In this document: positions 10,641 through 37,365 of the stretch, piece after piece
How the letters are laid out: each line of letters starts with the position of its first letter
Numbering within the stretch: position 1 is the first letter of the stretch
Origin: Bacteroidota bacterium
GTDB taxonomy: Bacteria; Bacteroidota; Bacteroidia; 2-12-FULL-35-15
DNA: 64,000 nt
NCBI GenBank assembly: GCA_017303895.1
Contig: JAFLBF010000008.1
Span: 8,813 to 72,812 of the forward strand
Direction: 5' to 3'
The notes under the pieces: model-generated
The model's database searches: none
The model's input: only the letters and a program-made list of their open reading frames with translations
What the model was told of the DNA's origin: nothing
Translations under genes and position numbers: made by a program

Positions 10641-10643
10641 CTT

Positions 10644-11606: not shown

Positions 11607-11609
11607 TCT

Positions 11610-12473: not shown

Positions 12474-12481
12474 ACGATCAA

Positions 12482-13681: not shown

Positions 13682-14134
13682 ATGAATACGCTCGAAAAGA
13701 AAGACATAAAATCGAAAAACAGCCTTTTCTACTCTGTCCAAGTACCTGTCAGGTTCAGTGAAGTAGATGCATTGGGGATCGTTTGGCATGGGCATTATCT
13801 TAAATTCTTTGAAGATGGCCGGGAGGCGTTTGGTCAGCAATATGGGCTAAGCTACCTTGATGTGTACAAATACAAATTTGCAACCCCTTTGGTCAACATC
13901 AATGTTGATTACAAAAAAACGGTGAAGTACGGAGATAGTGTCCGAATTGAAACAACTTTCATCAATTCTCCTGCTGCAAAGATCATTTTTAACTACAAAA
14001 TATTTCGCACATCTGACAATGAATTAGTGGCAACAGGTGAATCAACGCAAGTATTCATTAACATGGACCATGAACTTTTAATAACAATACCTCCATTTTT
14101 TGAAGAATGGAAACGAAAACACGGACTGGCTTAA
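13682..14134 (+). CDS. 4HBT/YbgC-family acyl-CoA or acyl-ACP thioesterase (hotdog fold)
   Basis: 150 aa. YSVQVPVRFSEVDALGIVWHGHYLKFFEDGREAF matches the 4-hydroxybenzoyl-CoA thioesterase family signature. First gene of the plus-strand biosynthetic cluster. Confidence 0.7.
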   Translation: MNTLEKKDIKSKNSLFYSVQVPVRFSEVDALGIVWHGHYLKFFEDGREAFGQQYGLSYLDVYKYKFATPLVNINVDYKKTVKYGDSVRIETTFINSPAAKIIFNYKIFRTSDNELVATGESTQVFINMDHELLITIPPFFEEWKRKHGLA

Positions 14135-14137
14135 CAT

Positions 14138-15289
14138 ATGAAGGTATTCGTTGCTGCAGATAGTATTATTTCACCGCTTGGTTTTAACAGTTCAGAAAAT
14201 TTCTTGAATCTGAAAGAAATGAAGAGTGGCATACAGTTTTTCGAGAAATCTTTTTTCTCCCATGAGCCTGTTCATGCCGCCTATATTGATCCTGCAAAAA
14301 CAGATGAGGCATTTTCCAAGATAGGGGATCCGAAAGCATTCACAAAATTGGAGAAAATAGCCATTCTCTCTATTCATCATGCAATTTCACAGAATCCAAA
14401 AATTGATATAAAAAGTAATAAAACACTTATTATCTTTTCTAGTACCAAAGGAAATGTAGAATTACTAGATCCTTCCAATAAAAGTCAATTTAGCAGAAAT
14501 AAACTTTTTTTATGGGATACTGCGAACACGATCGCTCAGTTTTTTGGAAATCCAAATAAACCTCTTACGGTCTCCAATGCATGTATTTCAGGAGTGGTTG
14601 CTTTAATTATAGGCAAACGATTACTAGTCCAGCAACTCTATGAAAACATTGTTGTTGTAGGTGCAGATGTATTGAGTCACTTTGTTGTTTCTGGCTTTCA
14701 ATCTTTCAAAGCGGTAAGCAATGAGATCGCTAAACCTTATGATGCCAATAGAACAGGTATTTCATTAGGGGAAGCAGCAGGAACCATTATATTAACCTCA
14801 AATCCTGATCTAGCCAGTCAATCGGCTATTGAAGTGAAGGGGGGCGCTAGTTCAAACGATGCAAATCATATTTCAGGTCCTTCCCGTACAGGAGATGGTT
14901 TATTACTTTCAATTGAAAACGCATTGCATGAATCGGCATTAAAACCGGAAGAGATCGATTTTATATCAGGGCATGGAACAGCCACATTATTCAATGATGA
15001 AATGGAATCCCTGGCAATTACAGATGCTCACCTAGAACGTGTTCCAATGAATAGTTTAAAAAGTTATTTCGGACATACTTTAGGAGCAGCTGGTATCATA
15101 GAATCCGTTGTTACACTTGAATCGATGAGAAACAACACTATTATTGGCACCTATAATTATTCAAGTCCGGGAACGTCTAAACCAATACATATTATTGATA
15201 AAACCCAAGCTGCAACATTAGTAAATTGCTTAAAAACAGCAGCCGGCTTCGGTGGTTGTAACGCAGCAATTGCTTTTAGTAAAATATGA
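14138..15289 (+). CDS. Beta-ketoacyl-ACP synthase family protein (KS)
   Basis: 383 aa. Thiolase fold. Cys-containing active-site region TVSNACISGVVAL. His motifs SGHGTATLFND and YFGHTLGAAG. ATG at 14138 is 3 nt after the thioesterase stop. Confidence 0.75.
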   Translation: MKVFVAADSIISPLGFNSSENFLNLKEMKSGIQFFEKSFFSHEPVHAAYIDPAKTDEAFSKIGDPKAFTKLEKIAILSIHHAISQNPKIDIKSNKTLIIFSSTKGNVELLDPSNKSQFSRNKLFLWDTANTIAQFFGNPNKPLTVSNACISGVVALIIGKRLLVQQLYENIVVVGADVLSHFVVSGFQSFKAVSNEIAKPYDANRTGISLGEAAGTIILTSNPDLASQSAIEVKGGASSNDANHISGPSRTGDGLLLSIENALHESALKPEEIDFISGHGTATLFNDEMESLAITDAHLERVPMNSLKSYFGHTLGAAGIIESVVTLESMRNNTIIGTYNYSSPGTSKPIHIIDKTQAATLVNCLKTAAGFGGCNAAIAFSKI

Positions 15290-15921
15290 CAGATAAATTA
15301 TACATATCTGCAGCTTGCTGCATTAAGAATGGAAAAGTGTTCATCAACGGGGAATTGGAACATGAGGACCAATCACATGCATTGTCCATTGATTTCTTAA
15401 AATCGCTCTATAAACACTATGCCATCAACTATCCTAAATTTTACAAGATGGATAGTCTATGTAAATTAGCATTTATTACATCGGAATTGATCTTGAAAAA
15501 TAGGCCAATAGCGCAAGAGTATGAAGGAAAAGACATTGCGATCGTCATTGCCAATAGCTCGTCATCATTAGAAATTGACACCGAACATCAACAAACTATT
15601 AATGACCCGGAAAACTATTTTCCGAGCCCAGCAAACTTTGTGTACACCTTACCGAACATACTCATTGGGGAAATAGCAATAAGAAATCAGATAAAAGGTG
15701 AGAATACTTTCTTTATTTTTGATAAATTTGACACGCATTTCATGGCAACCTACATCGAATCGCTTATTAAAACTCAAAAAGCAAAAGCGTGTATTGTCGG
15801 ATGGGTGGATTATTTCGAGAACAATTACGAAGCCTATTTGTATATTGTAGAAACAAACCCGAAGGGAATGCAATTAACACACGATCAAGAAACTATTAAC
15901 AAATTAACTATAAATAACTAA
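15286..15921 (+). CDS. Small KS-related protein (3-oxoacyl-ACP synthase-like accessory subunit) of the aryl-polyene-type cluster
   Basis: 211 aa. Start overlaps the upstream KS stop (ATGA). No catalytic Cys/His motifs are evident. Its position between KS and ACP matches the small KS-like genes of APE/flexirubin clusters. Confidence 0.4.
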   Translation: MTDKLYISAACCIKNGKVFINGELEHEDQSHALSIDFLKSLYKHYAINYPKFYKMDSLCKLAFITSELILKNRPIAQEYEGKDIAIVIANSSSSLEIDTEHQQTINDPENYFPSPANFVYTLPNILIGEIAIRNQIKGENTFFIFDKFDTHFMATYIESLIKTQKAKACIVGWVDYFENNYEAYLYIVETNPKGMQLTHDQETINKLTINN

Positions 15922-15925
15922 ACGC

Positions 15926-16180
15926 ATGGATGCATTAATCGACAAGTTAAAAGGAGAAATTATTGAGCAATTGAATTTAGAAGATGTAAAAAAAGAGGAT
16001 ATCGACAACGATGCTCCGCTTTTTGGTGATGGATTAGGACTAGATTCGATCGATGCATTAGAATTGATCGTTCTTTTAGAGAAGAACTATGGCATCAAAG
16101 TGTCGAACCCGCAGGATGGAAAGAAGATCTTTCAATCGATTCGCACCATGGCTGAATTCATTGAAGCCAACAAAAAATAA
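15926..16180 (+). CDS. Acyl carrier protein
   Basis: 84 aa. Phosphopantetheine attachment motif GDGLGLDSIDALELIV (DSxD/E). Confidence 0.8.
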   Translation: MDALIDKLKGEIIEQLNLEDVKKEDIDNDAPLFGDGLGLDSIDALELIVLLEKNYGIKVSNPQDGKKIFQSIRTMAEFIEANKK

Positions 16181-16203
16181 TTCTCCTGTCGTCTCTTCTT
16201 ATA

Positions 16204-17408
16204 TGAGCAATAAGGTTTACATCACCGGATTAGGTGTTATTTCCGCCATAGGAAGTAACATTGAAGAAACACTTGATTTTTTAAACAAACAAAAATCAGG
16301 AGTTACTTCATTGGATAATATCGTATCCCGATACCAACATCAGCTTCCTGTAGGTGAAGTAAAAGCTACCAATGCTGAATTAAAAAAATTAGCAGGAGTT
16401 GAACATTTACCTGATAATACCCGGACAACCTATTTGGGCATTATAGCAGCCAAGGAAGCAGTAAAAAATGCAGCTATAAAAGACATTAAAGAATTTCGTA
16501 CAGGGCTTATCTCGGCCACAAGTGTAGGTGGTATGGGAATCACTGAAGATCTATGGCTGGATTATCTCGATACAGGAAAGTCAGGTGAGTGGTTACACTA
16601 CATTGAAACACATGAATGTGGAGACAGTACCGAAAGTATTGCTGATAGCATTGGAGTAAAAGATTATCTTTCAACAATAAGTACTGCCTGCTCCTCTTCT
16701 GCCAACTCTATAATGTATGGAGCCAGATTGATCAAACATGGCATCCTGGATCGTGTCATTGTTGGTGGTACCGACTCCTTATCACGTTTTACCATTAATG
16801 GCTTTATGACATTAATGATCCTTGACAATGAAAATTGTAAACCCTTTGATGCAGAACGAAAAGGCTTAAACCTTGGTGAAGGGGCCGGATTCATTGTTCT
16901 TGAATCGGAAAGAGCTGCTAAAGGGAAAGAAATATTGGCTGAACTAAGCGGATATGGCAACTCCAATGATGCTTACCATCAAACAGCATCATCACCGGAC
17001 GGAGCAGGAGCTTATTTGGCAATGGAAAAAGCATTTAAAGTAAGTGGTTTAAAACCGGAAAACATTGACTACATCAATGCACATGGAACAGGAACCGCTA
17101 TCAACGATCTGTCAGAAGGAACAGCCATTACCAGAATGTTTGGTCAAAAAGTTCCATTGATCAGTTCTACAAAAGCATTTACAGGACATACACTTGGAGC
17201 CTGTGGCGGAATAGAAGCAGTATTTTCTGTTTTAGCAATAAAACACAACACTGTATTCCCTAATTTGAATTATAAGAATCAGATGCCTGAAGTGGAATTT
17301 AAACCCACCACAGAATTACTTCACACACCGATCAACCATGTGTTATCTAATTCATTTGGATTTGGAGGGAATACTTCAGCATTAATTTTTTCAAGACATC
17401 AGGCATAA
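16204..17408 (+). CDS. Beta-ketoacyl-ACP synthase II-like (FabF-type KS)
   Basis: The track ORF starts at 16089 but that frame overlaps the ACP gene. The first plausible start is the ATG at 16204 (MSNKVYITGLGVIS...). Active site STISTACSSSANS. His motifs NAHGTGTAIND and FTGHTLGACG. C-terminal GFGGNTSALIFS. Confidence 0.8.
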
Positions 17409-18473
17409 ATGGAAGCATATATCAACGGGGTTAGTGTCATTTCTCCTCAAAACACATTTAATACTACTGATTTCCTATCAGAACCTGTTGTGCATACAAA
17501 CAACTATTTACAATGTATTGAACCTTCCTATAAAGAATTTTTAAATCCAACGCTTGCGCGTAGAATGGCTCGCTTGATAAAGATGGGAATAGCAGCATCC
17601 AACATTTGTATGAAAGATGCCGGAGTTGAAATGCCGGATGCCATCATCACAGGAAGTGCTTTAGGATGCTTAGAGGATACTGAAAAATTTTTACTGGCTA
17701 TTATTGAAAACCAAGAACAGTTTTTAACTCCAACTTCATTTATTCAGTCGACACACAATACGGTGAGTGCACAAATTGCGCTGCAACTCAAGTGCATGAA
17801 CTATAACTTCACCTATGTTCATAAAGGTTTTTCTTTTGAAAGTGCTTTGCAAGATAGTTTAATGACCATTGCGGAAGGAGAAGCAAAGAATGTTCTTACC
17901 GGTGCACACGATGAAATGACCCCAAAATACTATCGTGTATGCGACAGAATTGGTTATTGGAAAAAAGAAGATATTTCCACTTTTGACTTGATCAAGTCAA
18001 AAACATCCGGCAGTATAGCTGGCGAAGGAGCCGCCTTCTTCATGCTTGGGAAAGAACAAAACGATCATTCCTATGCGAAATTAAGGGGCTTAAAAACCAT
18101 ATACAAGCCTGATAATAATAAGGCTGTTGAGCAAAATATTCATGAATTACTTTCAGAAAAAGGTCTGAGTATAAAAAATATAGATCTGGTTATCTATGGA
18201 ATCAATGGAGATTCCCGTTATGATCATGTTTACTATGATCTGAAAGACGAACTATTCAAAGATGCTACTGCTTGTTATTTCAAACACTTATGTGGCGAAT
18301 ATCAAACAGCATCCAGCTTTGCGATGTGGATCGCTGCGATGATACTAAAAACACAGACTGTGCCTGATGCAGTAGTTATTGGCGAAAACAAACACAAACC
18401 GGTTAAAAATATATTGATCTATAATACATTCCTTAATATTGATCATAGTGTATTTGTGCTTTCACAATGCTAA
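17409..18473 (+). CDS. KS-like chain-length-factor protein (thiolase fold, no active-site Cys)
   Basis: 354 aa. Starts immediately after the FabF-like stop (TAAATG). KS-like N-terminus (MEAYINGVSVISP) but no TACSS-type Cys motif. Typical of type II PKS/APE KS-CLF pairs. Confidence 0.6.
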   Translation: MEAYINGVSVISPQNTFNTTDFLSEPVVHTNNYLQCIEPSYKEFLNPTLARRMARLIKMGIAASNICMKDAGVEMPDAIITGSALGCLEDTEKFLLAIIENQEQFLTPTSFIQSTHNTVSAQIALQLKCMNYNFTYVHKGFSFESALQDSLMTIAEGEAKNVLTGAHDEMTPKYYRVCDRIGYWKKEDISTFDLIKSKTSGSIAGEGAAFFMLGKEQNDHSYAKLRGLKTIYKPDNNKAVEQNIHELLSEKGLSIKNIDLVIYGINGDSRYDHVYYDLKDELFKDATACYFKHLCGEYQTASSFAMWIAAMILKTQTVPDAVVIGENKHKPVKNILIYNTFLNIDHSVFVLSQC

Positions 18474-19240
18474 CATTTCGTTCGTCATTACTACTTTTCA
18501 TTCTTACACTAATCGGGTGTTTTTTTCTGATCTATTTTTATGACATAAGTTGCTGGTGGCTTTCTCTCCCGGTAGTATGTCTTAAATTGCTAATCATTTG
18601 GGGATCAGCAAATATTCAATCTAATTTTTACTTAAAGACACTAAACGGAGCCGATACTCAAAAAAAAGAAATAGCTATCACTTTTGATGATGGTCCAAAT
18701 GCTTTATTTACTCCTAAAATATTGAATGCATTAGCAAGTGAAGAAGCGCAAGCTACTTTTTTTGTGATCGGAAAAAACATCAATGGAAATGAAACACTTT
18801 TGCAAAAAATAAATGAAGCAGGACATACAATTGGCGGACATTCCTTCAGTCATGGGTTTATGATCGACTTTAAAAGCAAAAATGGTTTTATAGAAGAAAT
18901 AGTTCAAACCAATGATCTCATCCATAGAACAATTGGAAAAAGACCACGCTTATTCCGTCCACCCTATGGAGTAACAACCCCTAATATAGCATCAGCTGTT
19001 AAAGCATTAAATCAGGAGGTTATTGGCTGGAATGTAAGGTCGTTGGACACAACAAACGATAGTGCAGAAAAGATCATGGAACGTATTAAAAAAAGCCTTC
19101 AGCCGGGTTCTATCCTACTGTTTCATGATACATCCGATAAAACAGTGGATGTATTAAAACAAACCCTTAATTTTGCAAAAGAAAATGGCTTCAAAGTTGT
19201 AAGTATTGAGCAGCTATTAAATATCAAAGCGTATGAATAA
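18467..19240 (+). CDS. Polysaccharide deacetylase (NodB-homology domain), membrane anchored
   Basis: 257 aa. N-terminal TMs. NodB motifs ITFDDGPN and HSFSHG. Confidence 0.7.
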   Translation: MLTFRSSLLLFILTLIGCFFLIYFYDISCWWLSLPVVCLKLLIIWGSANIQSNFYLKTLNGADTQKKEIAITFDDGPNALFTPKILNALASEEAQATFFVIGKNINGNETLLQKINEAGHTIGGHSFSHGFMIDFKSKNGFIEEIVQTNDLIHRTIGKRPRLFRPPYGVTTPNIASAVKALNQEVIGWNVRSLDTTNDSAEKIMERIKKSLQPGSILLFHDTSDKTVDVLKQTLNFAKENGFKVVSIEQLLNIKAYE

Positions 19241-19871
19241 GTTTTTATTTGTTATTATATTTTTCCTTCTGTCTATTAGCATTTCCGCTCAAGTCCCTGC
19301 CGGATATAAACCGGTAAAAGATACGGCCGCTTTCAAGCAACAAATGCAAGCGCAATCCAAATTGGTGAATACCATTGAAAGTGATTTTACACAAGAAAAA
19401 TATTTAAGTGTTATGTCCGAAAAGATCATCACCAAAGGACATTTCCTTTTCAAAAAAGTGAACATGTTGCGTTGGGAATACACAGACCCATTGAAATATT
19501 TGATCGCTATCAATAAAGACAAGATGTTTATTAAAGACAATGGGAAAGTGAGTAAGTATGATATTAACTCAAATAAAATGTTCAAATCCATCAATGAAAT
19601 GATGGTAAATACAGTTCAAGGAAACCTACTGAATAACAAAGATTACAAAGCAAAATATTATGAAAATGAGAAATTCTATTTGCTGGAATTATCTCCGCTT
19701 CAAAAAGGAGCAAAAGACTTTTTAAAAGTGATCCAACTTTACATCGATAAAAAGGATTATGCTGTAGTGAAAGTTAAAATGATCGAGCCAAGTGACGATT
19801 ATACAATGATCGACTTTAGCAACCGTAAAACGAACCAACCAATAGGTGATGAAAAATTTATTGTTAAGTAG
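19233..19871 (+). CDS. LolA-like outer-membrane lipoprotein carrier protein
   Basis: 212 aa. Signal peptide MNKFLFVIIFFLLSISISAQ. LolA-like size and context (FTQEKYLSVMSEKIITKGHFLF...). Flexirubin/APE clusters characteristically encode LolA/LolB-like pairs. Confidence 0.6.
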   Translation: MNKFLFVIIFFLLSISISAQVPAGYKPVKDTAAFKQQMQAQSKLVNTIESDFTQEKYLSVMSEKIITKGHFLFKKVNMLRWEYTDPLKYLIAINKDKMFIKDNGKVSKYDINSNKMFKSINEMMVNTVQGNLLNNKDYKAKYYENEKFYLLELSPLQKGAKDFLKVIQLYIDKKDYAVVKVKMIEPSDDYTMIDFSNRKTNQPIGDEKFIVK

Positions 19872-20481
19872 TTTTATTGTTCTCTTTCTCTACGGATGCT
19901 CATTGGGGCATTATGAGAAACTTAAAAGTACTTTAAAGCCTGAATCCGTTGCTCTGCATTCTCTCTTTGGGGAGAATTTCAACTCATTCTTATTCAAAAC
20001 AAATATTCGCGTTTATGGCAAAGACTTTAGCGGCTTGTTGGTAACAAAACAAATGCAACCAAATGACTATCGGGTTATTTTCACAACTGAATTAGGGATG
20101 AAATTATTCGATTTCGAATTTAAAGACACTTCATTTACATTGCATTATTGTGTTCCCCAATTTAACAGACCTGCACTCTTAAAAACTATCCAAAAGGATA
20201 TAGAGATCCTTCTCATGAACGAAACAAAGAATAAAACAGCGGAGGTATTCATCAATCCAAAAGACAGCGCTTTTGTTTACAAATTCAAAGACAGCAAACT
20301 TGACAATTATTACTTTCTAGATAAATTATCAAGACAAATTTACCGGATTGAACACGCAAAAAAGAACACTAAAAAAATCACCTTTGATCTGAACAATTAT
20401 TCAGATCAATTTCCAAGCAATATCATGATCAAACATCATGATATCAAATTAAAGATCGAATTAAATCTTTTAAAGAAATAA
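19849..20481 (+). CDS. Predicted lipoprotein, possible LolB-like partner
   Basis: The track starts at the GTG at 19846. The ATG at 19849 gives MKNLLLSSFIVLFLYGCSLG, a lipoprotein-type signal with Cys. No other motif recognised. Confidence 0.4.
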   Translation: MKNLLLSSFIVLFLYGCSLGHYEKLKSTLKPESVALHSLFGENFNSFLFKTNIRVYGKDFSGLLVTKQMQPNDYRVIFTTELGMKLFDFEFKDTSFTLHYCVPQFNRPALLKTIQKDIEILLMNETKNKTAEVFINPKDSAFVYKFKDSKLDNYYFLDKLSRQIYRIEHAKKNTKKITFDLNNYSDQFPSNIMIKHHDIKLKIELNLLKK

Positions 20482-20483
20482 GC

Positions 20484-21245
20484 ATGCAATCTGCCTCTCC
20501 AACATATAGCTTACCGGTTCTACTTTATCATCGTATTGTCAACAAACAGTCGATAATAGGAAAACATAAAGTATATGTATGGGAAAAGGATTTTGAAAAA
20601 CAAATGCAATACTTGAAGGATAATGGATACCAGACCATTACTTTTTATGACCTTCAAAAAGAGCCCAAAATGGATCTTTACAAAAAGGTCATGATCACCT
20701 TTGATGATGGTTATCTGGACAACTATGAATTACTATTTCCTATTCTAAAGAAACATGGATTCAAGGCAATCATTTACCTTGTAACCCGCATCGATCATAA
20801 TGCATGGGGCGTGAAAGAAGGGGAACCGAGGATCAATATGATGTCGGCTGCACAAGTAAAAGAAATGAGTGATTATGGTGTTGAAATGGGGGGACATACA
20901 CAACATCATGTTGATCTGTTACGTCACAATGCAACAGAACAACTTTCTGAGATCAAAGGCTCCAAAGAGGATGTAGAAAAACTTACAGGCAAACCAGCTA
21001 TTAGTTTTGCATACCCTTTTGGCGGGATCAATGAAGACATTAAACAGATTACAAAAGAAGCAGGTTTTACCTATGCAGTTTCAACAAACACAGGACCTAA
21101 AGAATTTGGAAAAGATTGGTTCCAGATAAGACGCATTGAGGTAACACCTAAAACAAATATGCTCAGCTTTAAAAACAAGGTAAGCGGACGTTACTTCTAC
21201 CCTTCTTTCCTAAAATCGCTTTTTACGGGCAAACAAACTAAATAA
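20484..21245 (+). CDS. Polysaccharide deacetylase family protein (NodB-homology)
   Basis: 253 aa. MITFDDGYLDNY (NodB motif 1) and GGHTQHH (His motif). Confidence 0.7.
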   Translation: MQSASPTYSLPVLLYHRIVNKQSIIGKHKVYVWEKDFEKQMQYLKDNGYQTITFYDLQKEPKMDLYKKVMITFDDGYLDNYELLFPILKKHGFKAIIYLVTRIDHNAWGVKEGEPRINMMSAAQVKEMSDYGVEMGGHTQHHVDLLRHNATEQLSEIKGSKEDVEKLTGKPAISFAYPFGGINEDIKQITKEAGFTYAVSTNTGPKEFGKDWFQIRRIEVTPKTNMLSFKNKVSGRYFYPSFLKSLFTGKQTK

Positions 21246-21280
21246 TCTTTTATCTTCGCATAACGAAAAAAGCAGAATAG

Positions 21281-22162
21281 ATGAAAGTATCCGGTTTTTC
21301 CTTCATTAAGAACGCCATAAAATTTGATTACCCAATTATTGAGGCCATTACCTCTATTCTTCCAGTTTGCGATGAATTTGTTGTAGCAGTTGGCAAATCG
21401 GATGATGATACCCTCAACTATATCAAATCGATCAATTCTCCAAAAATAAAGATCATTGAAACGGTTTGGGACGAAACATTACGCGAAGGCGGAAGAGTGT
21501 TGGCAGATGAAACCAATAAAGCATTTAGAGCCATTTCACCAGATAGCGACTGGGCATTTTATATTCAAGGAGATGAAGTCATTCATGAAAAATACCTGAA
21601 TAACATTAAGAATGCTATGATCAAGTACAAGAATGATAAAGAAGTAGATGGCTTGGTATTCGACCACCTGAATTTTTATGGTTCATACGATTATATAGCA
21701 GATTCCAGACATTGGCAAAAAAAGGAGATCAGGATCGTTCGAAATAAAAAGAACATCTACTCTTACAAAGACGCCATGAGTTTCAGGAAAGATAATGATG
21801 ACAAGCTGAATGTAGCTTATGTTGATGCGTGCATTTATCATTACGGATGGGTTAAACCCCCCGCTGCTATGCAACAAAAACAATTAGAGTTTCAAAAACT
21901 ATGGCACGATGACAATTGGATCAAAGAGAATGTACCACAAGTAGATGAGTTTGATTTTTCAAATGTTGACTCAGTAGCTTTATTCAAAGAAACGCATCCC
22001 AAAGTGATGGAACAACGGCTAAAGCGATTGACATGGAAATTTAGTTTCGATCCAACTAAAGCTAAAAAAGAATCACTCAGAAGACGATTCTTAAATCTGA
22101 TCTATAAAAAAACAGGAGTTCATATTGGGGAGTTCAAAAATTATAATCTAATTAGAAAGTAA
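21281..22162 (+). CDS. GT-A-fold glycosyltransferase-like protein (family 2-like), cluster-associated
   Basis: 293 aa, FSFIKNAIKFDYPIIEAITSILPVCDEFVVAVGKSDDDT. This pattern is commonly annotated as glycosyltransferase family 2 in flexirubin-type clusters. I cannot confirm a DxD motif. Confidence 0.45.
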   Translation: MKVSGFSFIKNAIKFDYPIIEAITSILPVCDEFVVAVGKSDDDTLNYIKSINSPKIKIIETVWDETLREGGRVLADETNKAFRAISPDSDWAFYIQGDEVIHEKYLNNIKNAMIKYKNDKEVDGLVFDHLNFYGSYDYIADSRHWQKKEIRIVRNKKNIYSYKDAMSFRKDNDDKLNVAYVDACIYHYGWVKPPAAMQQKQLEFQKLWHDDNWIKENVPQVDEFDFSNVDSVALFKETHPKVMEQRLKRLTWKFSFDPTKAKKESLRRRFLNLIYKKTGVHIGEFKNYNLIRK

Positions 22163-22166
22163 AAAC

Positions 22167-22532
22167 ATGCTTATCAACGACTTTTTCAAAATAAAGGACA
22201 TTCAACAAGGCGAAAAATACAATATTCAAATTGAATTGAATCCAAAGCACAAAGTATATCAAGGTCATTTTCCCGGAAATCCTGTAGCGCCTGGTGTGTG
22301 TTTAACCCAAATGGTAAAGGAAACTGTGGAGCATATCACAGGTAAGAAATTGACAATGGTTACCGGTGACAATCTTAAATTCACAGCCGTTCTGAACCCG
22401 GAGATCAATCCGGAAGTAATAATGACCCTTGCCATCAAAACAAAAGAAAATGGTCATCTTCAAGCTGATAGTAATGTGTCTGCAGGTGACAGTAGCTTCT
22501 TCTCAATTAAAGCCAGTTTTAGAGAGAGCTAG
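22167..22532 (+). CDS. FabA/FabZ-like 3-hydroxyacyl-ACP dehydratase (hotdog)
   Basis: 121 aa. YQGHFPGNPVAPGVCLTQM is the FabZ-type catalytic-His region (HFPxxPVxPG). Confidence 0.65.
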   Translation: MLINDFFKIKDIQQGEKYNIQIELNPKHKVYQGHFPGNPVAPGVCLTQMVKETVEHITGKKLTMVTGDNLKFTAVLNPEINPEVIMTLAIKTKENGHLQADSNVSAGDSSFFSIKASFRES

Positions 22533-22620
22533 CACTTCAGCTGAATTGCTGGTTTCCCTTCAATTTTAAGCTCATTTTATACTAAAAAATCAGGCGAAAA
22601 ATGTTATTTTTGTCTGCCTT

Positions 22621-22650
22621 AAAAGTTGCCAATGGCAACCTTTTTTGTTT
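22621..22650 (+). terminator. Putative intrinsic terminator inside the biosynthetic cluster
   Basis: AAAAGTTGCC-AAT-GGCAACC followed by TTTTTTGTTT. This is a GC-containing stem (GTTGCC/GGCAAC, extendable with a one-base bulge) plus T-tract. It lies between the dehydratase stop (22532) and the next ATG (22668). Confidence 0.5.
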
Positions 22651-22667
22651 AGGAATGTTAAGTTAAT

Positions 22668-23891
22668 ATGAGCAACGTGGACAAGGAATTGTATAGAAAT
22701 AAAATGAGCACACTAAAATGCTGTGTGATCATTCCTACCTACAATAACGAAAAAACGATCGTTGCAGTGATCAATAGCGTATTGGAGTTTACATCTGATG
22801 TAATTGTGGTGAACGATGGGGCTACGGATTCAACGGCAGAGCTTTTAAAACAATTTGCAAAAAGCATTACCATTTTATCCTATCTTCCTAACAAAGGAAA
22901 GGGGGTCGCATTACGCACAGGCATAAAATATGCTCAAGAAAAAGGCTTTCGTTATGCCATAACGATTGATAGTGATGGCCAACATTTTGCCGATGACATT
23001 CCCGTTTTCATTGATAAAATAGAATTAGAGCCCGACTCACTCCTTGTTGGAGCACGCAACTTAAATCAGGAGAATATGCCAAAGAAAAACACCTTTGGTA
23101 ATAAATTCTCTAATTTTTGGTTCAAGCTTTTTACGCATATTGATCTGCCTGATACACAATCAGGTTACCGCCTATATCCAATCGAGAAAATGAAGGGTAG
23201 CAGATATTTCACAACCAAATATGAATTTGAAGTAGAAGTAATGGTAAAGGCTGCATGGAAGGGAATTCATGTAACATCTGTACCGATAAGAGTTTTCTAT
23301 GCCGAAGGGAAAGAGCGAGTTACACATTTCAGACCAGGAAAGGATTTTACACGTATCAGTTTATTGAACACGTATTTGTTTTTTCTGGCTTTTTTATGGT
23401 ACAAACCAAAGTTTATCATTCAAAATTTTACCTGGTCCAATATCAAAAAATTTCTTTCAAAACATTTTTTAGATGCCAATGAATCGGTATTAAAAAAATC
23501 AATGGGTGTTGCTTTTGGAGTGTTTATGGGCATCATTCCGATTTGGGGTTATCAATTTGTCAGTGCTCTGATATTAGCTCATTTTCTAAAACTAAACAAA
23601 GCTATTGTTGGATTAGCTGCTCAAATAAGTGTTCCTCCAATGATCCCTGTTCTTATCTACGGAAGTTTAAAAACCGGACAGTTCACTTTAGGAAAAGATA
23701 TACATGAAAGTATTTTCAATTCTGAAATAAATTCTGTTCAGGAGATCTGGGAGGCCATGAAACTTCATTTGGTTGAGTATCTCGTAGGGAGTGTTGTATT
23801 TGCTATTGTTATGGCCATCATATTCGGGCTGATCACATTTATCACATTAAAAATAGTAGGGAAAAAAGTTCTTATCAAAATCGATCAATAA
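22668..23891 (+). CDS. Family 2 glycosyltransferase fused to a C-terminal DUF2062-like membrane domain
   Basis: 407 aa. GT2 signature CCVIIPTYNNEKTI...VVNDGATDST...ITIDSDGQH (DxD-like). C-terminal hydrophobic segments (MGVAFGVFMGIIPIWGYQFVSALILAHFL...). Confidence 0.7.
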   Translation: MSNVDKELYRNKMSTLKCCVIIPTYNNEKTIVAVINSVLEFTSDVIVVNDGATDSTAELLKQFAKSITILSYLPNKGKGVALRTGIKYAQEKGFRYAITIDSDGQHFADDIPVFIDKIELEPDSLLVGARNLNQENMPKKNTFGNKFSNFWFKLFTHIDLPDTQSGYRLYPIEKMKGSRYFTTKYEFEVEVMVKAAWKGIHVTSVPIRVFYAEGKERVTHFRPGKDFTRISLLNTYLFFLAFLWYKPKFIIQNFTWSNIKKFLSKHFLDANESVLKKSMGVAFGVFMGIIPIWGYQFVSALILAHFLKLNKAIVGLAAQISVPPMIPVLIYGSLKTGQFTLGKDIHESIFNSEINSVQEIWEAMKLHLVEYLVGSVVFAIVMAIIFGLITFITLKIVGKKVLIKIDQ

Positions 23892-23896
23892 ATTAA

Positions 23897-26800
23897 GTGC
23901 ATTTATTTTTTACATCCATATACCGATTTTTAGCAAAAAGAAGGATCCTCTTTTTTGTCCTTTTCCTTGCCTCTATCGCATTCTCCGTTTTCTTTGCCAG
24001 CAAATTGTCGCTGGAAGAGGATATTACCAAGATGATGCCGACCGATGCAAAGGTAGAGAGACTGAATAAGGTATTCAAAAACTCTAAATTCCTCGACCGC
24101 TTAGTTGTTACTATTTCCCCATCAGATACCACAAAAACGTCTGAACCGGATCAATTGATTGCATTTGCAGACAGTTTGGTTGCTAAAATCAGTCTGATCG
24201 ATACCTCACTCGTAAAAAATATCACCTATAAGGTGAATGATGAGGTGATGTATGACGTGTACAATACATTTATAGAAAACTTACCTGTTTTTTTAGAGGA
24301 AAAAGACTACTCTATTTTATCGGATTTGATAAAACCCGAACGTATCGACTCCACCATGGAGAAGAATTACAAAACCCTTCTTTCTCCTGCCAGTATGGTG
24401 CTAAAGAAGAATATTCTTCGCGACCCGATCGGGATAACACCTTATGCTTTGAAGAGAATGCAAAGTCTTCAATTTGATGATAATTTTGAATTAGATAATG
24501 GATACATCTTTACAAAAGATAAAAAACACCTCTTGTTCTTTATCACTCCAAAGCCTGTTTCATCGGAAACCGCAAAAAACACCGAACTGCTTACTCAATT
24601 AGACACTGCTATTCATCAATGCAGTCGATTAAACCCGAAAATACATGCAGAATATTTTGGTGGTTTAGCTGTTGCTGTTGGCAATGCAAAGCAGATCAAA
24701 CAAGATGTGATCCTCACACTTTCTATCACTGTAATCGGATTATTTTTATTCATCAGTTTGTTCTTTAAACGCCTAGAAGTATTCTTTATCATTTTTATCC
24801 CGGTAGTATTTGGAGGCTTATTCTCTCTCTCTATGCTCTATCTTCTTAAAGGCGAAATATCTGCTATTGCATTAGGAGCGGGCTCTATTATCCTGGGGAT
24901 AGCCATGGATTACACCATCCATTTTTATACGCATTTCAAACATTTAAATTCAGCAGAAGGCACCATTAAAGATCTTTCATTCCCTTTAACTCTTGGAAGC
25001 ACCACAACCATAGGAGCTTTATTAAGCTTGGTATTTGTAAAATCGGAAGCACTCCAGGACTTTGGGATGTTTGCAGCCTTTGCATTAATGGGTGCTGCAC
25101 TTTTTACACTCATCTTATTCCCACATTTATTAAGAAAAAGGAAACAGGCAGCCAGTACCCCGGTTGAACACAAAACAAATATCATTGAAAAGATCGCTGC
25201 TTATCCATTTGAAAAAAATAAATACCTGATCATTTCGATCATATTATTGTGTGGAATATCATTATTCACCTCTCAAAAAGTAGGTTTTGAAGGCGATATG
25301 ATGAATTTTAATTACATGAGCAAAGAATTAGCCCAGGCAGAAAGTAATTTGAATGCGATCAGCAATGTTTCATTAAAAAGTGTTTATCTGGTTTCAAGTG
25401 GAAAAAACTTGGACGAAGCCTTGGCTAATAATGAAAAGAATCTTCCTAAACTGGAAGAACTTCAACAAAAAAATATTATTAGAAAATATTCAACGATCAA
25501 TACATTATTACTATCAAAGGCGGAGCAACAAAAAAGAATAGAGCGCTGGAATAGCTTTTGGGCAGAAGAGAAAAAGGCTGAATTAAAGCAGTCATTGATT
25601 GAAAAAAGCAGTAAGTATAAATTTAAAGAAAATGCATTTGATCAGTTCTACGCTCTTTTAGAAAAAGACTTTACACCAATTGATGCCAATGTATTCAGTG
25701 GTCTTCGCTCCACATTATTAGACAATTATATTTCTGAGAATATAGATGAAACCACTGTCGTAACCGTTATCAAAACAACTGCTGAAAACGAGGACAGAGT
25801 CTTTAACTCATTTACAGAGAATGAACATTTAGTAGTATTTGATAAAAAATTTCTGACCAACCGTTTTGTTGAGATCATCAAAAATAATTTCAACCTGATC
25901 CTTACTATCTCCTCTATGCTGGTATTGATCATGCTGATCATTTCCTATGGCAGATTTGAACTGGCACTGATCACCTACATTCCTATGGTATTAAGCTGGC
26001 TCTGTATTTTAGGATTAATGGGACTTTTCGGCATTAAGTTTAACATCATCAACATCATCATTTCCACATTCATTTTTGGATTAGGTGATGATTACAGCAT
26101 CTTCATTACGGATGCGATGTTGAACGAATATAAAACCGGACAAAAGAATCTGGCATCTTACAAAACAGGAATTTTCATTTCAGCGATCACCACCATGATA
26201 GGAATTGGTGTTCTCATTTTTGCATCACATCCGGCATTAAAGTCTATTGGCTTGATCACCATAATAGGAATGTTCTCGGTATTGCTCATTTCAAATACCA
26301 TCCAACCTGCATTGTTCCGTTTCTTTATTACAAACAGAACAGATAAAAAAAGAGTTCCTCTAACATTATTGAGCATACTGCAATCAATATTGGCTTTCGG
26401 GTGGTTTACCTTCGGCTGTTTTACATTAATACCAATGGGGTTTGTGATCGTAAAACTGTTACCTATCCCTAAAAAAATTCGTCTAAGAATATTTCATCAG
26501 ATCCGGCACTATTATACTAAGTCGATGATCCATATTCACGCACATGTGAGGAGAAAGTTCATCAACGAACAAAACGAACGATTCGACAAGCCAGCTGTTG
26601 TTGTAGCCAATCATCACTCTGTAATTGATTCTTTGTTAATGCAATCGTTGAATCCTAAACTCATTTTAATGGTAAACGATTGGGTATGGGACTCTCCTTT
26701 TATGGGACCAATTGTCCGTTTAGGAGGTTTTATTCCGAAGTCGGCCGGATATGAGGAGAACTTAGATAAGATCCGTGAACTCATCAATGACGGTTATTCT

Positions 26801-27745
26801 CTTGCCATTTTCCCGGAAGGATCCCGATCTGAAACACCGAAAATTGGCCGATTCCACAAAGGAGCATTTTACATTGCCGAAAAATTAAATGTTGATATTG
26901 TACCTATCATTTTCCATGGAACAGCTTTTATTCAAGGAAAAGATGACAGTGCTCTTTTAAAGAATGGTAGTGTAACTGTAAAATATCTTCCGAGAATTCC
27001 TGCTTCAGACACAAACTTTGGAAAAGATTACAATGAAAAAACAAAGAACATCAGCAAATATTTCAAGCAGGAGTATGCCTTGATGCGTCAGGAAATAGAA
27101 ACGGTAGATTATTACTTTAACCGCCTATCCAAAAATTATATTTACAAAGGACCGGTTTTAGAATGGTACATGCGCATAAAAGTAGGATTGGAAGATAATT
27201 ACAGGCTGTTTGAATCACTTTTACCTAAAAAGGGAACCATTACAGATATTGGTTGTGGATATGGATTTTTACCATATATGCTCAGCTTTATGAGTGAGGA
27301 CAGGATAGTTATTGGCACCGATTACGATGAAGAAAAAATAGCAGTGGCAGATCACTGCTTTTCCAAGACCGATAAATTATCCTTCTTTGCGGCAGATGCA
27401 ACAAAATGTGAATTACCGAAGAGTGATGCATTTATCATGAGTGATATATTACACTATCTTCCAAAGCAGGAACAAGAGAAGCTGATCGTGAAGTGCATGA
27501 ACAGCTTAAATGATGGAGGAATGATACTTTTAAGGGATGCGGATGCCAGTTTGACAAACAGACATTGGGGAACGCGTTATACAGAATTTATTTCTACTAA
27601 CTTTGGATTCAATAAAACACAAAATAAACTTGAATTTGTATCATCAAGCTTCATTGAAGATGTTGTAAAAAAGAATAATTACAAGATCCAAAAGATTGAC
27701 AATACAAAACTTACTTCTAACATTACATACGTTATAAAAAAATAG
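23897..27745 (+). CDS. Trifunctional fusion: MMPL/RND-like exporter, 1-acyl-sn-glycerol-3-phosphate (PlsC-type) acyltransferase and class I SAM-dependent methyltransferase
   Basis: 1282 aa. Track start is a GTG, so the true start is uncertain. About aa 1-860: two sets of TM helices with large loops (MMPL-like). About aa 906: acyltransferase HX4D motif VVVANHHSVIDSLL, nt about 26609-26630, with FPEGSRS downstream. About aa 1117: methyltransferase motif I ITDIGCGYGFLPY, nt about 27245-27270. Confidence 0.75.
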   Translation: MHLFFTSIYRFLAKRRILFFVLFLASIAFSVFFASKLSLEEDITKMMPTDAKVERLNKVFKNSKFLDRLVVTISPSDTTKTSEPDQLIAFADSLVAKISLIDTSLVKNITYKVNDEVMYDVYNTFIENLPVFLEEKDYSILSDLIKPERIDSTMEKNYKTLLSPASMVLKKNILRDPIGITPYALKRMQSLQFDDNFELDNGYIFTKDKKHLLFFITPKPVSSETAKNTELLTQLDTAIHQCSRLNPKIHAEYFGGLAVAVGNAKQIKQDVILTLSITVIGLFLFISLFFKRLEVFFIIFIPVVFGGLFSLSMLYLLKGEISAIALGAGSIILGIAMDYTIHFYTHFKHLNSAEGTIKDLSFPLTLGSTTTIGALLSLVFVKSEALQDFGMFAAFALMGAALFTLILFPHLLRKRKQAASTPVEHKTNIIEKIAAYPFEKNKYLIISIILLCGISLFTSQKVGFEGDMMNFNYMSKELAQAESNLNAISNVSLKSVYLVSSGKNLDEALANNEKNLPKLEELQQKNIIRKYSTINTLLLSKAEQQKRIERWNSFWAEEKKAELKQSLIEKSSKYKFKENAFDQFYALLEKDFTPIDANVFSGLRSTLLDNYISENIDETTVVTVIKTTAENEDRVFNSFTENEHLVVFDKKFLTNRFVEIIKNNFNLILTISSMLVLIMLIISYGRFELALITYIPMVLSWLCILGLMGLFGIKFNIINIIISTFIFGLGDDYSIFITDAMLNEYKTGQKNLASYKTGIFISAITTMIGIGVLIFASHPALKSIGLITIIGMFSVLLISNTIQPALFRFFITNRTDKKRVPLTLLSILQSILAFGWFTFGCFTLIPMGFVIVKLLPIPKKIRLRIFHQIRHYYTKSMIHIHAHVRRKFINEQNERFDKPAVVVANHHSVIDSLLMQSLNPKLILMVNDWVWDSPFMGPIVRLGGFIPKSAGYEENLDKIRELINDGYSLAIFPEGSRSETPKIGRFHKGAFYIAEKLNVDIVPIIFHGTAFIQGKDDSALLKNGSVTVKYLPRIPASDTNFGKDYNEKTKNISKYFKQEYALMRQEIETVDYYFNRLSKNYIYKGPVLEWYMRIKVGLEDNYRLFESLLPKKGTITDIGCGYGFLPYMLSFMSEDRIVIGTDYDEEKIAVADHCFSKTDKLSFFAADATKCELPKSDAFIMSDILHYLPKQEQEKLIVKCMNSLNDGGMILLRDADASLTNRHWGTRYTEFISTNFGFNKTQNKLEFVSSSFIEDVVKKNNYKIQKIDNTKLTSNITYVIKK

Positions 27746-27750
27746 TTGCT

Positions 27751-29265
27751 ATGTCAAAATATGATATCGTCATTATAGGAAGCGGTCTGGGGGGATTAGA
27801 GTCTGCATACATTCTTAGTAAAGAAGGATACAAGGTATTAGTTCTTGAAAAGAACAGACAATTAGGAGGCAGCTTACAAATATTTGTTAGAGATAAAGCT
27901 ATTTTTGATACCGGAATTCATTATTTGGGAGGCTTGGATGAAGGACAAAACCTTAACCAGAGTTTCAAATATTTTAATATAATGGATAAATTACATCTTC
28001 AAAAGATGGATATGGATGGATTCGACCGTATCTCTTTTGATGGTGATGAGAAAGAATACAAGCATGCTCAAGGCTACGATAATTTTGTGGAGCAGTTGGC
28101 TAAAGACTTTCCAAAAGAGCGTGAAAATCTAAAACTTTATGCTCAAAGAATTCAGGAAGTATGTGACTATTTCCCATTATATCAGTTGAAAGAAGACGAT
28201 GCTCCAATTATTGGAACAAAATACTTAGATATAAATGCTAAGGATTTTATTGCATCCATTACATCCGATGTCCGTTTGCAAAATGTACTAGCAGGCTCCA
28301 ACCCTTTGTATGCAGGCGATGGAAGCAAAACACCTTTGTATGTTCACGCTTTAGTAGTCAACACCTATATTGAAAGTTCTTATAAATGTATCGATGGAGG
28401 CGCTCAAATTGAAAAGCATTTAACAAAAAACATCAAAGCGCTTGGAGGAGAAATCCGAAACTACTGTGAAGTAACAAAGATCGTTGAAAAAGATGGCTTG
28501 ATTACACATGTCGAATTATCGACTGGTGAGATCATTGAAGGGAAAAACTTTATTAGCAACATTCATCCTGCAACGACTATGCATATGCTGGAAAGCACTA
28601 AAATAAAAAAAGCATACAGTAATCGTTTACAAGGACTACAAAACTCTGTTTCCGCATTCATTATCGACATTGTTCTTAAACCGAACACATTCAAATATAT
28701 CAACCATAATCATTATCATTTCAGACGAAACGATGTGTGGTCAAGTGTGGATGTTGCAGGAGATCAATGGCCGGATGGTTATTGTGTTTTTGTTCCGAAA
28801 TCATCCCGTTCTGGTGAATATGCCGACAGCATGACCATTTTAAGTTACATGAAATACGATGAAGTAAAAAAATGGGAAGATACATTTGCAACGATCCCCA
28901 AACACAATGAAAGCAGAGGCCAGGAATATGAAGATTTCAAAATTGAAAGAGCCGAAAGAGTGATCGATGAGGTTGTAAAAAAATTCCCTGATCTACGAAG
29001 TAAGATCAAATCATACACTACCTCTACTCCACTCACCTATAGGGATTACATTGGAGCAAAAGATGGCGGGTTATATGGTATTGCAAAAGATTACCGTGAT
29101 CCGCTAAAAACGTTTATTTCACCAACAACTAAGATCCCTAATTTATTCTTTACCGGTCAGAATTTAAACATGCACGGTGTGTTGGGAGTAACTGTTGGTG
29201 CTATCAGAACTTGTGGTGTGTTTGTTGGGCAGAATTATTTGATCCAGAAGATCAATCAGGCTTAA
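27751..29265 (+). CDS. FAD/NAD(P)-dependent oxidoreductase, phytoene-desaturase (CrtI)-like
   Basis: 504 aa. N-terminal Rossmann motif YDIVIIGSGLGGLESAYILSKEGYKVLVLEKN. Confidence 0.75.
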   Translation: MSKYDIVIIGSGLGGLESAYILSKEGYKVLVLEKNRQLGGSLQIFVRDKAIFDTGIHYLGGLDEGQNLNQSFKYFNIMDKLHLQKMDMDGFDRISFDGDEKEYKHAQGYDNFVEQLAKDFPKERENLKLYAQRIQEVCDYFPLYQLKEDDAPIIGTKYLDINAKDFIASITSDVRLQNVLAGSNPLYAGDGSKTPLYVHALVVNTYIESSYKCIDGGAQIEKHLTKNIKALGGEIRNYCEVTKIVEKDGLITHVELSTGEIIEGKNFISNIHPATTMHMLESTKIKKAYSNRLQGLQNSVSAFIIDIVLKPNTFKYINHNHYHFRRNDVWSSVDVAGDQWPDGYCVFVPKSSRSGEYADSMTILSYMKYDEVKKWEDTFATIPKHNESRGQEYEDFKIERAERVIDEVVKKFPDLRSKIKSYTTSTPLTYRDYIGAKDGGLYGIAKDYRDPLKTFISPTTKIPNLFFTGQNLNMHGVLGVTVGAIRTCGVFVGQNYLIQKINQA

Positions 29266-34930: not shown

Positions 34931-34957
34931 GATACTATTGATACTACCAATACTCAC

Positions 34958-36664: not shown

Positions 36665-36697
36665 GATCTCAAATTTTACACGTAACGAAAGTTCTAT

Positions 36698-37348: not shown

Positions 37349-37365
37349 CAATTATTCAAAAAATC

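Follow-up and report, generated by a model that had tools for sequence, protein, structure and literature searches.

A trimmed core of the flexirubin-type (aryl-polyene family) gene cluster with an additional deacetylase/glycosyltransferase pair in uncultured Bacteroidota

INTRODUCTION

Flexirubin and aryl polyene (APE) clusters are among the commonest biosynthetic gene clusters (BGCs) of Gram-negative bacteria. In 252 Bacteroidetes strains, 268 flexirubin BGCs were counted (Brinkmann 2022), and aryl polyenes were the third most frequent antiSMASH BGC type in metagenome-assembled genomes (MAGs) from activated sludge. Here, we describe a block of 15 genes that belongs to this family. It lies at positions 13682 to 29265 of a 64-kb stretch (the window) of contig JAFLBF010000008.1 from a Bacteroidota bacterium (GCA_017303895.1). 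The locus represents a trimmed member of the known cluster family from an uncultured order and has an extra NodB deacetylase/glycosyltransferase pair.

The closest described system is the flxA-flxY cluster of Chitinophaga pinensis DSM 2588 (MIBiG BGC0000839; Schoner et al. 2014). Its flxH-flxV part encodes, in this order, a thioesterase, a ketosynthase (KS), a methyltransferase, a halogenase, a condensing-enzyme-like protein, an acyl carrier protein (ACP), a KS, a KS-like protein, a NodB deacetylase, LolA, a hypothetical protein (equivalent to LolB2), a dehydratase-like protein, a family 2 glycosyltransferase (GT2), the FlxU fusion and the retinol-reductase-like FlxV (Schoner 2014, Tables S4 and S5). 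The flx (Cpin_1853-1877) and dar (Cpin_6843-6852) loci of this organism are far apart (Schoner 2014). In Flavobacteriia, APE genes are found with or without darA/darB, and lack of the two is common (Kumagai 2018). The genes lolA2 and lolB2 have been reported to occur always in flexirubin-type pigment loci and not elsewhere (De Smet et al. 2025).

The core of APE clusters consists of KS (apeO/R), ACP, chain length factor (CLF; apeC), dehydratase (apeI/P), ketoreductase (apeQ) and transporter (apeM) genes (Grammbitter 2020). ApeO and the small ApeC act as a heterodimer (6QSP), and the polyene is built on the ACP by ApeO:ApeC and ApeR, together with ApeQ and ApeI/P (Grammbitter 2020). In Xenorhabdus, the dehydratase genes are both apeI and apeP, and the ape genes also give a nonaryl conjugated C26:5 acyl chain (Grammbitter 2020). 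The APE end product is a lipid of the outer membrane (Grammbitter 2020; Johnston 2021). The lipid of X. doucetiae has a glycerol-phosphate-GalNAc anchor to which the chains are attached by ApeD and ApeJ (Grammbitter 2020), and ApeM, ApeL and ApeN are the proposed carriers of the lipid to the outer membrane (Grammbitter 2020; Johnston 2021).

RESULTS

The open reading frames (ORFs) of the window were listed, and the encoded proteins were scanned against Pfam and NCBIfam. The block proved to be one unbroken run of 15 co-oriented genes on the plus strand, and all 15 ORFs were intact. A preliminary description of the window, made from the letters of the DNA, had reported a co-oriented flexirubin/APE block of the same span with 16 genes; span and orientation stand, and the gene number is 15. 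The domains it had listed match our scans. Its family assignment holds as well, since the block corresponds one to one to the published flx and Fjoh clusters and passes the flexirubin-specific Lol models described below. Comparison of the domain scans with Tables S4 and S5 of Schoner et al. showed that the block is colinear with flxH-flxV of C. pinensis from the thioesterase to a CrtI-like protein. The same gene order recurs in more than 15 independent MAGs and hence is not due to chance. Judged from its encoded proteins, the block represents the conserved core of a predicted flexirubin-type (aryl-polyene family) type II polyketide-lipid pathway.

The first six genes encode the putative chain-building enzymes. 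A 4HBT/YbgC-type thioesterase (13682 to 14134; PF13279, 7e-20; TIGR00051) takes the FlxH/ApeK position, and its gene opens the block in all relatives. KS1 (14138 to 15289), at the FlxI position, has both the N- and the C-terminal ketoacyl-synthase domain, and its closest relative in the PDB is the aryl-polyene ketosynthase ApeO (6QSP_A, 4e-34). The start of the next gene overlaps the KS1 stop. It encodes a 211-amino-acid (aa) protein at the FlxL/ApeC position (15286 to 15921) that matched no family in the Pfam and NCBIfam scans, aligns only to the N-terminal half of ketosynthases and lacks the catalytic Cys; its match to the CLF chain 6kxd_B is weak (E = 0.47). This half-KS is probably a CLF-like partner of KS1. 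It is followed by a dedicated ACP at the FlxM position (15926 to 16180; PP-binding domain; NF006617, 88 bits, cutoff 70) with a DSI phosphopantetheine motif. KS2 (16203 to 17408; start adopted from the 401-aa gene call in the related locus L045) takes the FlxN/DarD-like position; it has both ketoacyl-synthase domains and is nearer to FabF (4e-67) than to ApeO (3e-55) among PDB relatives. KS3, a 354-aa KS-like protein at the FlxO/DarE-like position (17409 to 18473; PF13723, 2e-10), matches ApeC weakly (6qsp_B, 0.047).

We aligned the four KS-like proteins to assess their active sites. The Cys-His-His residues are kept in KS1 and KS2, which are predicted to be active ketosynthases. KS3 has Gly in the Cys column, for which reason it is counted as Cys-less, and the first His is absent; it is probably the partner of KS2. 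The alignment, with two proteins retaining an active site and two inactive, confirmed the earlier description of a KS, a small KS-like protein, a FabF-like KS and a Cys-less CLF. An ApeO-type KS with a small CLF-like protein encoded directly downstream, a dedicated ACP (one, not two) and an RND (resistance-nodulation-division)/MMPL transporter are all present, as in the APE family.

The next genes encode envelope proteins. NodB1 (18467 to 19240; PF01522, 2e-32), at the FlxP position, is a NodB-type deacetylase of carbohydrate esterase family 4 (NodB/CE4) with the motifs TFDD, HSFSH and RPPY; a hydrophobic segment at its N terminus would anchor it in the membrane. The flexirubin-specific paralogues LolA2 and LolB2 are both present above their curated cutoffs. 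LolA2, the FlxQ/ApeL-like periplasmic carrier (19233 to 19871), has an evident signal peptide and scored 225 bits against the equivalog model NF053544 LolA2_flexi (cutoff 125). LolB2, the FlxR/ApeN-like outer-membrane lipoprotein (19849 to 20481), has the lipobox LYGC and scored 158 bits against the equivalog model NF053540 LolB2_flexi (cutoff 60). A second NodB/CE4 deacetylase, NodB2 (20484 to 21245; PF01522, 2e-26), is without signal peptide. Its gene is accessory: it is missing from most relatives and was found in the window, in L036 and L043 and also in L051 and L054.

NodB2 is followed by a 293-aa protein (21281 to 22162) for which Pfam, NCBIfam and PDB sequence searches gave no match. 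Its AlphaFold 2 model (pLDDT 85) has a GT-A fold, and the best Foldseek match was the GT2 enzyme SunS (1.8e-11), with TarS, TarP and SpsA also among the matches; homologues carry the NCBI label "glycosyltransferase family 2 protein." On the strength of this model, the protein is a predicted GT2-like glycosyltransferase, referred to below as the GT-A protein. The GT-A gene is likewise accessory and travels with NodB2 and the dehydratase gene. The GT-A protein has at least 120 homologue clusters at 64% identity or more, and it is 92% identical in a genome whose KS1 is 71% identical, a conservation far above that of its neighbors. Outside the KS/exporter context, its gene occurs alone (L053) or in the order NodB2-hypothetical-GT-A-ApeI-like dehydratase (L054). 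Because of the strong conservation and the occurrence outside the cluster, the data suggest that the GT-A protein may have a conserved envelope-glycolipid role of its own.

The ApeI-like hot-dog dehydratase at the FlxS position (22167 to 22532; PF07977, 3e-06; ApeI-like PF22818) has the His motif HFPGNPVAPGV, with Gln at the position of the catalytic Glu of FabZ. This Gln is common to all ApeI-like orthologues. The active site of FabZ-type hot-dog dimers is formed by the His of one subunit and the Glu of the other. At the FabZ Glu site, the ApeP-like proteins encoded in the related loci L049 and L028 have the motif E-N-I-A-Q. Since Gln replaces Glu in the ApeI-like protein while ApeP-like proteins carry the Glu motif, the lone dehydratase of the block probably depends on a second protein, ApeP-like or FabZ, whose gene lies elsewhere.

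Three further genes complete the block. The membrane glycosyltransferase at 22704 to 23891 (GT2, PF00535, 1e-24; DUF2062, PF09835, 6e-19) is FlxT/ApeJ-like; its nearest families are the polyprenyl-phosphate hexose or N-acetylhexosamine transferases AglJ, PpgS and GtrB sll0501. With the GT-A protein, the assignment by the preliminary description of two GT2-like proteins is thus borne out, here by Pfam and there by the AlphaFold model and Foldseek. The gene at 23897 to 27745 encodes a 1,282-aa fusion of an RND/MMPL exporter, a PlsC-type acyltransferase and a class I S-adenosylmethionine (SAM) methyltransferase (MMPL, Acyltransferase and Methyltransf_25 domains). The acyltransferase motifs NHHSVID and FPEGSRS and the SAM motif DIGCGYG are intact. 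From its domains the protein is predicted to be FlxU, combining the functions of ApeM, ApeD and ApeB. We rejected the idea of a new architecture, as it is the same as in FlxU of C. pinensis; the block being colinear with the published flx and Fjoh clusters, the three-domain fusion has already been described. The alignment of orthologues begins at residue 1 of the 1,282-aa form, which starts with GTG, and the first transmembrane segment lies within the first 45 residues. Automated calls start the gene 45 codons late (1,237 aa; window 23897 to 24031, L043 6282, L044 727) and lose this segment.

The last gene (27751 to 29265) encodes FlxV, a CrtI/carotenoid-isomerase/retinol-saturase-like flavin adenine dinucleotide-dependent oxidoreductase (NAD_binding_8 and Amino_oxidase domains). 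The protein scored 106 bits against TIGR02730, under the cutoff of the model, matched carotene desaturase 4rep in the PDB (1e-07) and is 81 to 93% identical in relatives. In L037 (4325 to 10677), we observed two tandem CrtI-like copies and a third, divergent copy after the fusion gene.

The only sizeable intergenic gap of the block lies at the dehydratase/GT2 boundary and contains a terminator-like hairpin followed by a T-run (22625 to 22639, plus strand). At this same boundary the clusters of relatives split. The block probably comprises two transcription units, from the thioesterase to the dehydratase and from GT2 to the CrtI-like gene. A sigma-70 promoter scan showed no enrichment; such a scan is uninformative for Bacteroidota. 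Rfam and tRNA scans of the window gave zero matches, and a role of an RNA element was rejected on these grounds. Recent horizontal acquisition was also rejected, because the GC content of the block (0.34 to 0.39) is like that of its flanks (0.35 to 0.39).

Compared to C. pinensis, the window has an additional NodB and the GT-A glycosyltransferase between LolB2 and the dehydratase. It lacks flxA (tyrosine ammonia-lyase, TAL), flxB (short-chain dehydrogenase/reductase [SDR] ketoreductase), flxC (KS), flxD (second ACP), flxE (LpxL-like acyltransferase), flxF (dehydratase-like), flxJ (methyltransferase), flxK (halogenase), flxW, flxX and flxY, and no dar locus is visible in it. Pfam and NCBIfam scans of all window ORFs of at least 100 aa found no SDR/adh_short ketoreductase (ApeQ/FlxB), no aromatic ammonia-lyase, no AMP-binding ligase, no C45 acyltransferase, no KAS III/DarB and no DarA. 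The models used for DarB, DarG and DarH do detect these genes in the related locus L049. We also searched the window by tblastn with proteins from related loci. Neither DarG, DarH, DarB, the ApeP-like dehydratase, the ATP-binding cassette (ABC) ATPase and the ABC-2 permease nor FlxE, FlxF, FlxK, FlxW and FlxY (the latter from L028; NF053551, 718 bits) gave a match.

A flexirubin is by definition a dialkylresorcinol (DAR) ester; pigments of this type are yellow-orange and change color reversibly in KOH. Within the 64 kb, the DAR module (DarA/DarB, DarG/DarH) is not found, nor are TAL (FlxA) and 4-coumarate-CoA ligase (FlxY) for a tyrosine-derived starter or the ketoreductase of the APE core (ApeQ/FlxB). 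Of the APE dehydratase pair, the ApeI-like member is there and an ApeP-like gene has no tblastn match. The preliminary description had likewise seen no ketoreductase, second dehydratase, aryl starter or DAR module in the window. Its caveat extends to the lineage, as the loci of close relatives also lack these genes. Without a ketoreductase and an ApeP-like partner for its dehydratase, the locus is not self-sufficient, and these steps would have to be provided from elsewhere, by dedicated paralogues or by FabG and FabZ of fatty acid synthesis.

A search with the fusion protein yielded 42 loci, all in MAGs of uncultured Bacteroidota, with a best identity of 83%. Exact copies of window proteins, the CrtI-like protein among them, were found on only two short Logan metagenome contigs; an exact-sequence look-up of LolA2 gave no match. 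The closest deposited MAG with the same arrangement is Damh_18-Q3-R51-60_MAXAC.126_sub (GCA_016707685.1; 3.28 Mb, 91.5% completeness), placed by GTDB in o__AKYH767; f__2-12-FULL-35-15 (SILVA Sphingobacteriales KD3-93). Synteny mapping and the gene neighborhoods of related loci revealed several states of the cluster.

In state A, a sister group from the same uncultured family (KS1 about 60 to 65% identical; e.g., L049/L007 from MAG RYN_274, contig JAOQAE010000002.1, and L008 from RIFCSPLOWO2_12_FULL_35_15), the core from the thioesterase to the CrtI-like gene has the same order (58 to 90% protein identity) without the NodB2/GT-A insertion. Immediately upstream of the thioesterase and co-oriented with it lie genes for DarG, DarH, three hypothetical proteins, DarB, an ApeP-like dehydratase, an ABC ATPase and an ABC-2 permease. 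In L049, the NCBIfam models scored 189 bits for flexirubin_DarG (cutoff 170), 408 for DarH_acyl (300) and 583 for resorcinol_DarB (550). A small UPF0175 (antitoxin-like) gene was observed between KS3 and NodB1 of this locus (14423 to 14659). In the remoter loci L028 (Arcticibacterium) and L023, a halogenase, a C45 acyltransferase (FlxW) and FlxY (718 bits, cutoff 520) follow the CrtI-like gene, and in L028 an LpxL-like acyltransferase and an ApeP-like dehydratase precede the thioesterase.

State B comprises the window, L045/L046 (KS1 89% identical) and L056 (KS1 71%; the Damh MAG), which have a common junction of SprB, Bat operon and thioesterase; no Dar, ABC or ApeP genes are found at the Bat-thioesterase junction of these loci. 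In L056, from a long-read assembly, the gene calls for half-KS, ACP and KS2 are short or split (11155 to 12901; 186, 82, 78 and 209 aa), most likely because of homopolymer frameshift errors of the assembly and not because the genes are pseudogenes. In state C (L047, L048 and L052), the thioesterase, KS1, half-KS, ACP, KS2 and KS3 genes stand by themselves amid unrelated genes. L055 has these same six genes following Sua5, on a contig that stops after KS3. The MAG of L047 carries GT2, fusion and CrtI-like genes alone on a second contig (L031). In MAG GCA_021155045.1, the genes from thioesterase to KS3 lie on one contig and GT2-MMPL-CrtI on another, so in this lineage the pathway genes need not be clustered. 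In state D (L051, a 770-kb JGI contig), the genes run from the thioesterase to the dehydratase, including NodB2 and GT-A, and then give way to unrelated genes. State E (L054) is the solitary NodB2-GT-A-dehydratase group mentioned above. Only GT2, fusion and CrtI-like genes were found in L004, L014, L016, L017, L027 and L030.

As the loci of relatives split at these points, the cluster behaves as four modules: thioesterase to KS3, NodB1-LolA2-LolB2, NodB2-GT-A-dehydratase and GT2-FlxU-FlxV. At the thioesterase end of the trimmed loci, the Dar, ApeP and ABC genes are absent in three genomic contexts (Bat operon, Sua5 and YHYH).

The genes of the block are under strong purifying selection. Against the 89%-identical L045, the ratio of nonsynonymous to synonymous substitution rates (dN/dS) was 0.004 to 0.04 for the thioesterase through KS3, values that are approximate because synonymous sites are near saturation between the two. 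The ratios of the cluster are similar to those of the adjacent housekeeping genes for MoxR and DUF58, and relatives with as little as about 70% identity still have intact ORFs. The Bat-thioesterase junction is common to the window and a genome in which KS1 identity drops to 71%, so the trimmed arrangement is old and has been maintained. On this evidence, the block appears to be a functional core, if not a self-sufficient one.

Upstream of the block and divergent from it lies a complete operon on the minus strand (5272 to 13468) for a MoxR AAA protein, DUF58, a 320-aa protein of unknown family, BatA, BatB, a TPR protein, BatD and a TPR/SH3 protein, with an SprB-type type IX secretion adhesin beyond it. 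We considered the MoxR, DUF58 and BatA-E genes as part of the cluster and rejected this, as they form a separate inverted operon of the aerotolerance type. The downstream gene (29262 to 30254) is convergent with the block; the genes on this side encode a cation-diffusion facilitator, a family III CoA-transferase, a DUF6089 outer-membrane protein, a GNAT protein and fumarylacetoacetase.

Farther downstream, positions 34367 to 38928 encode an extracytoplasmic function (ECF)-type sigma factor, 568-aa and 216-aa proteins without Pfam match and a 520-aa protein with a spermidine-synthase-like domain, in an order kept in L043 and L044. An 895-aa protein (43221 to 45908, minus strand) shows matches to two N-terminal and four C-terminal D-Ala-D-Ala ligase domains and an ATP-grasp stretch; it apparently consists of two Ddl-like units fused in tandem. 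A low-GC (0.30 to 0.34) cluster of the polysaccharide/O-antigen type occupies 46057 to 63593; it encodes FkbM and class I methyltransferases, GT1, GT2 and GT4 glycosyltransferases, a Wzx-like flippase and a HisH-like amidotransferase, and a 645-aa HisF-like/GT4 fusion lies at 56971 to 58908.

DISCUSSION

The identities of the genes, the state of the active sites, the colinearity, the trimming throughout the lineage and the purifying selection observed here provide the frame for a pathway whose pairings, step order, anchor chemistry and product we infer from homologues and family membership. KS1 and KS2, probably paired with the half-KS and the Cys-less KS3, respectively, would extend the chain with malonyl units on the dedicated ACP. 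Reduction and dehydration of the β-keto groups would then yield a polyene-type acyl chain. The PlsC-type domain and the membrane GT2/DUF2062 protein may load this chain onto a phospholipid-sugar anchor, which the GT-A glycosyltransferase and the two NodB deacetylases would modify further; family membership suggests de-N-acetylation of an amino-sugar head group by the NodB enzymes and addition of a second sugar by the GT-A protein. The methyltransferase and the CrtI-like flavoprotein, whose family acts on conjugated double bonds, could tailor the product, and the RND/MMPL domain, LolA2 and LolB2 would carry the lipid to the outer membrane. This scheme takes the characterized proteobacterial system as its template and is in line with the resemblance of the GT2 protein to lipid-phosphate N-acetylhexosamine/hexose transferases and with the GalNAc anchor of the X. 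doucetiae APE lipid. We favor, with a probability of roughly 0.4, an aryl-polyene-type outer-membrane lipid as the product, with the starter genes dispersed elsewhere in the genome and the DAR part missing; a dialkylresorcinol ester, i.e., flexirubin proper, would not be expected from the locus.

Dispersed genes are favored because the pathway is split in relatives, the flx and dar loci of C. pinensis lie apart, the dehydratase appears to need a partner and the methyltransferase domain has been kept. Even in the sister group, which has the DAR genes, FlxW and FlxY do not occur within 10 kb of the core, so that distance from the core is normal here. Several points weigh against this reading. 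The starter genes (TAL and FlxY), the ketoreductase, the ApeP-like gene, FlxW, the ABC genes and the Dar genes are absent from the 64-kb window and from the loci of the trimmed relatives, and their location elsewhere in the genome is an assumption. The biochemical steps all derive from homologues, and the members of the lineage are uncultured. Among the best 120 homologues of DarB from sister locus L049 (at least 77% identity), none lies on a trimmed-cluster contig.

The same absences could mean that the upstream Dar, ApeP, ABC and starter genes have been deleted and that the core takes an ordinary acyl starter together with FabG and FabZ of fatty acid synthesis. The product would then be nonaryl, for instance a conjugated or hydroxylated fatty-acyl aminoglycolipid of the outer membrane, comparable to the C26:5 chain of Xenorhabdus. 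True loss is suggested by the three unrelated contexts upstream of the thioesterase, with the missing genes in none of the trimmed loci, and APE machinery is known to make a nonaryl conjugated acyl chain as well (Grammbitter 2020). The solitary NodB2-GT-A-dehydratase module of L054 and the conservation of GT-A (92% versus 71% for KS) would fit a role in an envelope glycolipid. However, the methyltransferase domain has been retained and its motifs are intact, and its counterpart ApeB methylates the aryl ring (Grammbitter 2020). Moreover, the dehydratase partner is apparently encoded off the locus, so other pathway genes are to be expected elsewhere anyway, and absence from the roughly 200 kb of sampled flanks does not equal absence from a genome of 3.3 Mb. 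We regard a core that was severed from its starter and DAR genes and became an autonomous maker of a nonaryl aminoglycolipid, delivered by a dedicated RND-LolA2-LolB2 route, as possible yet doubtful. If it were true, the part of the cluster labeled "export/unknown" would be a self-standing Lol pathway for a lipid (not a lipoprotein) with its own KS set, and the four modules would be separable functional units.

That the lineage still makes canonical flexirubin, with the DAR module (DarA/B/G/H), ABC, ketoreductase and tyrosine-starter genes at one or more separate loci, seems unlikely to us. The split loci of C. pinensis are a precedent for it; in L049 and L008, which belong to the same GTDB family, DarB, DarG and DarH lie beside the core, and even their group lacks FlxW and FlxY close by. 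On the other hand, Flavobacteriia commonly carry APE genes but no darA/darB (Kumagai 2018), and many of the best 120 DarB homologues lie on sister-group contigs and none on those with the trimmed or GT-A cluster, although this count is weak evidence because the homologues considered end at 77% identity. We also asked whether the block could be a decaying, functionless remnant of a flexirubin cluster, given that several genes essential in characterized systems are absent and that the cluster is fragmented into modules in relatives. This is very improbable in view of the intact ORFs and catalytic motifs, the low dN/dS at near-saturated synonymous sites and the junction of SprB, Bat operon and thioesterase that has been kept at 71% identity of KS1.

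Flexirubin/APE clusters are so common that one more is not news. The comparative value of the aryl-polyene-type locus proposed here lies in the fact that a single uncultured family holds the core in three forms: with the DAR, ABC and ApeP genes, without them and broken into four modules. All three forms are under purifying selection, and this natural dissection shows which genes belong together as functional units. As a lead for comparative work, the break-up into modules under such selection is of modest use. The dissection offers a test of the role of the poorly understood half of the cluster (NodB, GT2, FlxU, FlxV and LolA2/LolB2) and of whether this half can work on a nonaryl chain.

In Flavobacterium johnsoniae UW101 (Fjoh_1075-1110; MIBiG BGC0000838; McBride 2009), the counterpart of the block runs from Fjoh_1094 to Fjoh_1077, inverted and in the same order, with LolA2 as Fjoh_1085, LolB2 as Fjoh_1084 (De Smet 2025) and the exporter-acyltransferase fusion as Fjoh_1078. 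There, the core is flanked on one side by genes for an ABC transporter, DarH/G, DarB/A, an acyltransferase, an ACP, a KS, a ketoreductase, a histidine ammonia-lyase (HAL) and a halogenase and on the other by a C45 acyltransferase and a CoA ligase; the window has the inverted Bat operon and the cation-efflux gene at these positions. Both in F. johnsoniae and in C. pinensis, the ketoreductase (FlxB) is encoded in the part of the cluster that is missing from the window.

With the ape cluster of E. coli CFT073 and X. doucetiae (Cimermancic 2014; Grammbitter 2019, 2020; Johnston 2021), the window shares the ApeO:ApeC-like pair, the ACP, the ApeI-like dehydratase, the thioesterase ApeK, the acyltransferase ApeD, the glycosyltransferase ApeJ, the methyltransferase ApeB, the RND exporter ApeM, the LolA-like ApeL and the LolB-like lipoprotein ApeN. 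Starter adenylation (ApeH), the ketoreductase ApeQ, the dehydratase partner ApeP and a second ACP are found only in the ape cluster. The functions of ApeM, ApeD and ApeB are combined in one fused protein in the window, which differs from the described ape genes (apeA-R) also in having the NodB deacetylases, the PF13723 KS-like protein and the CrtI-like flavoprotein.

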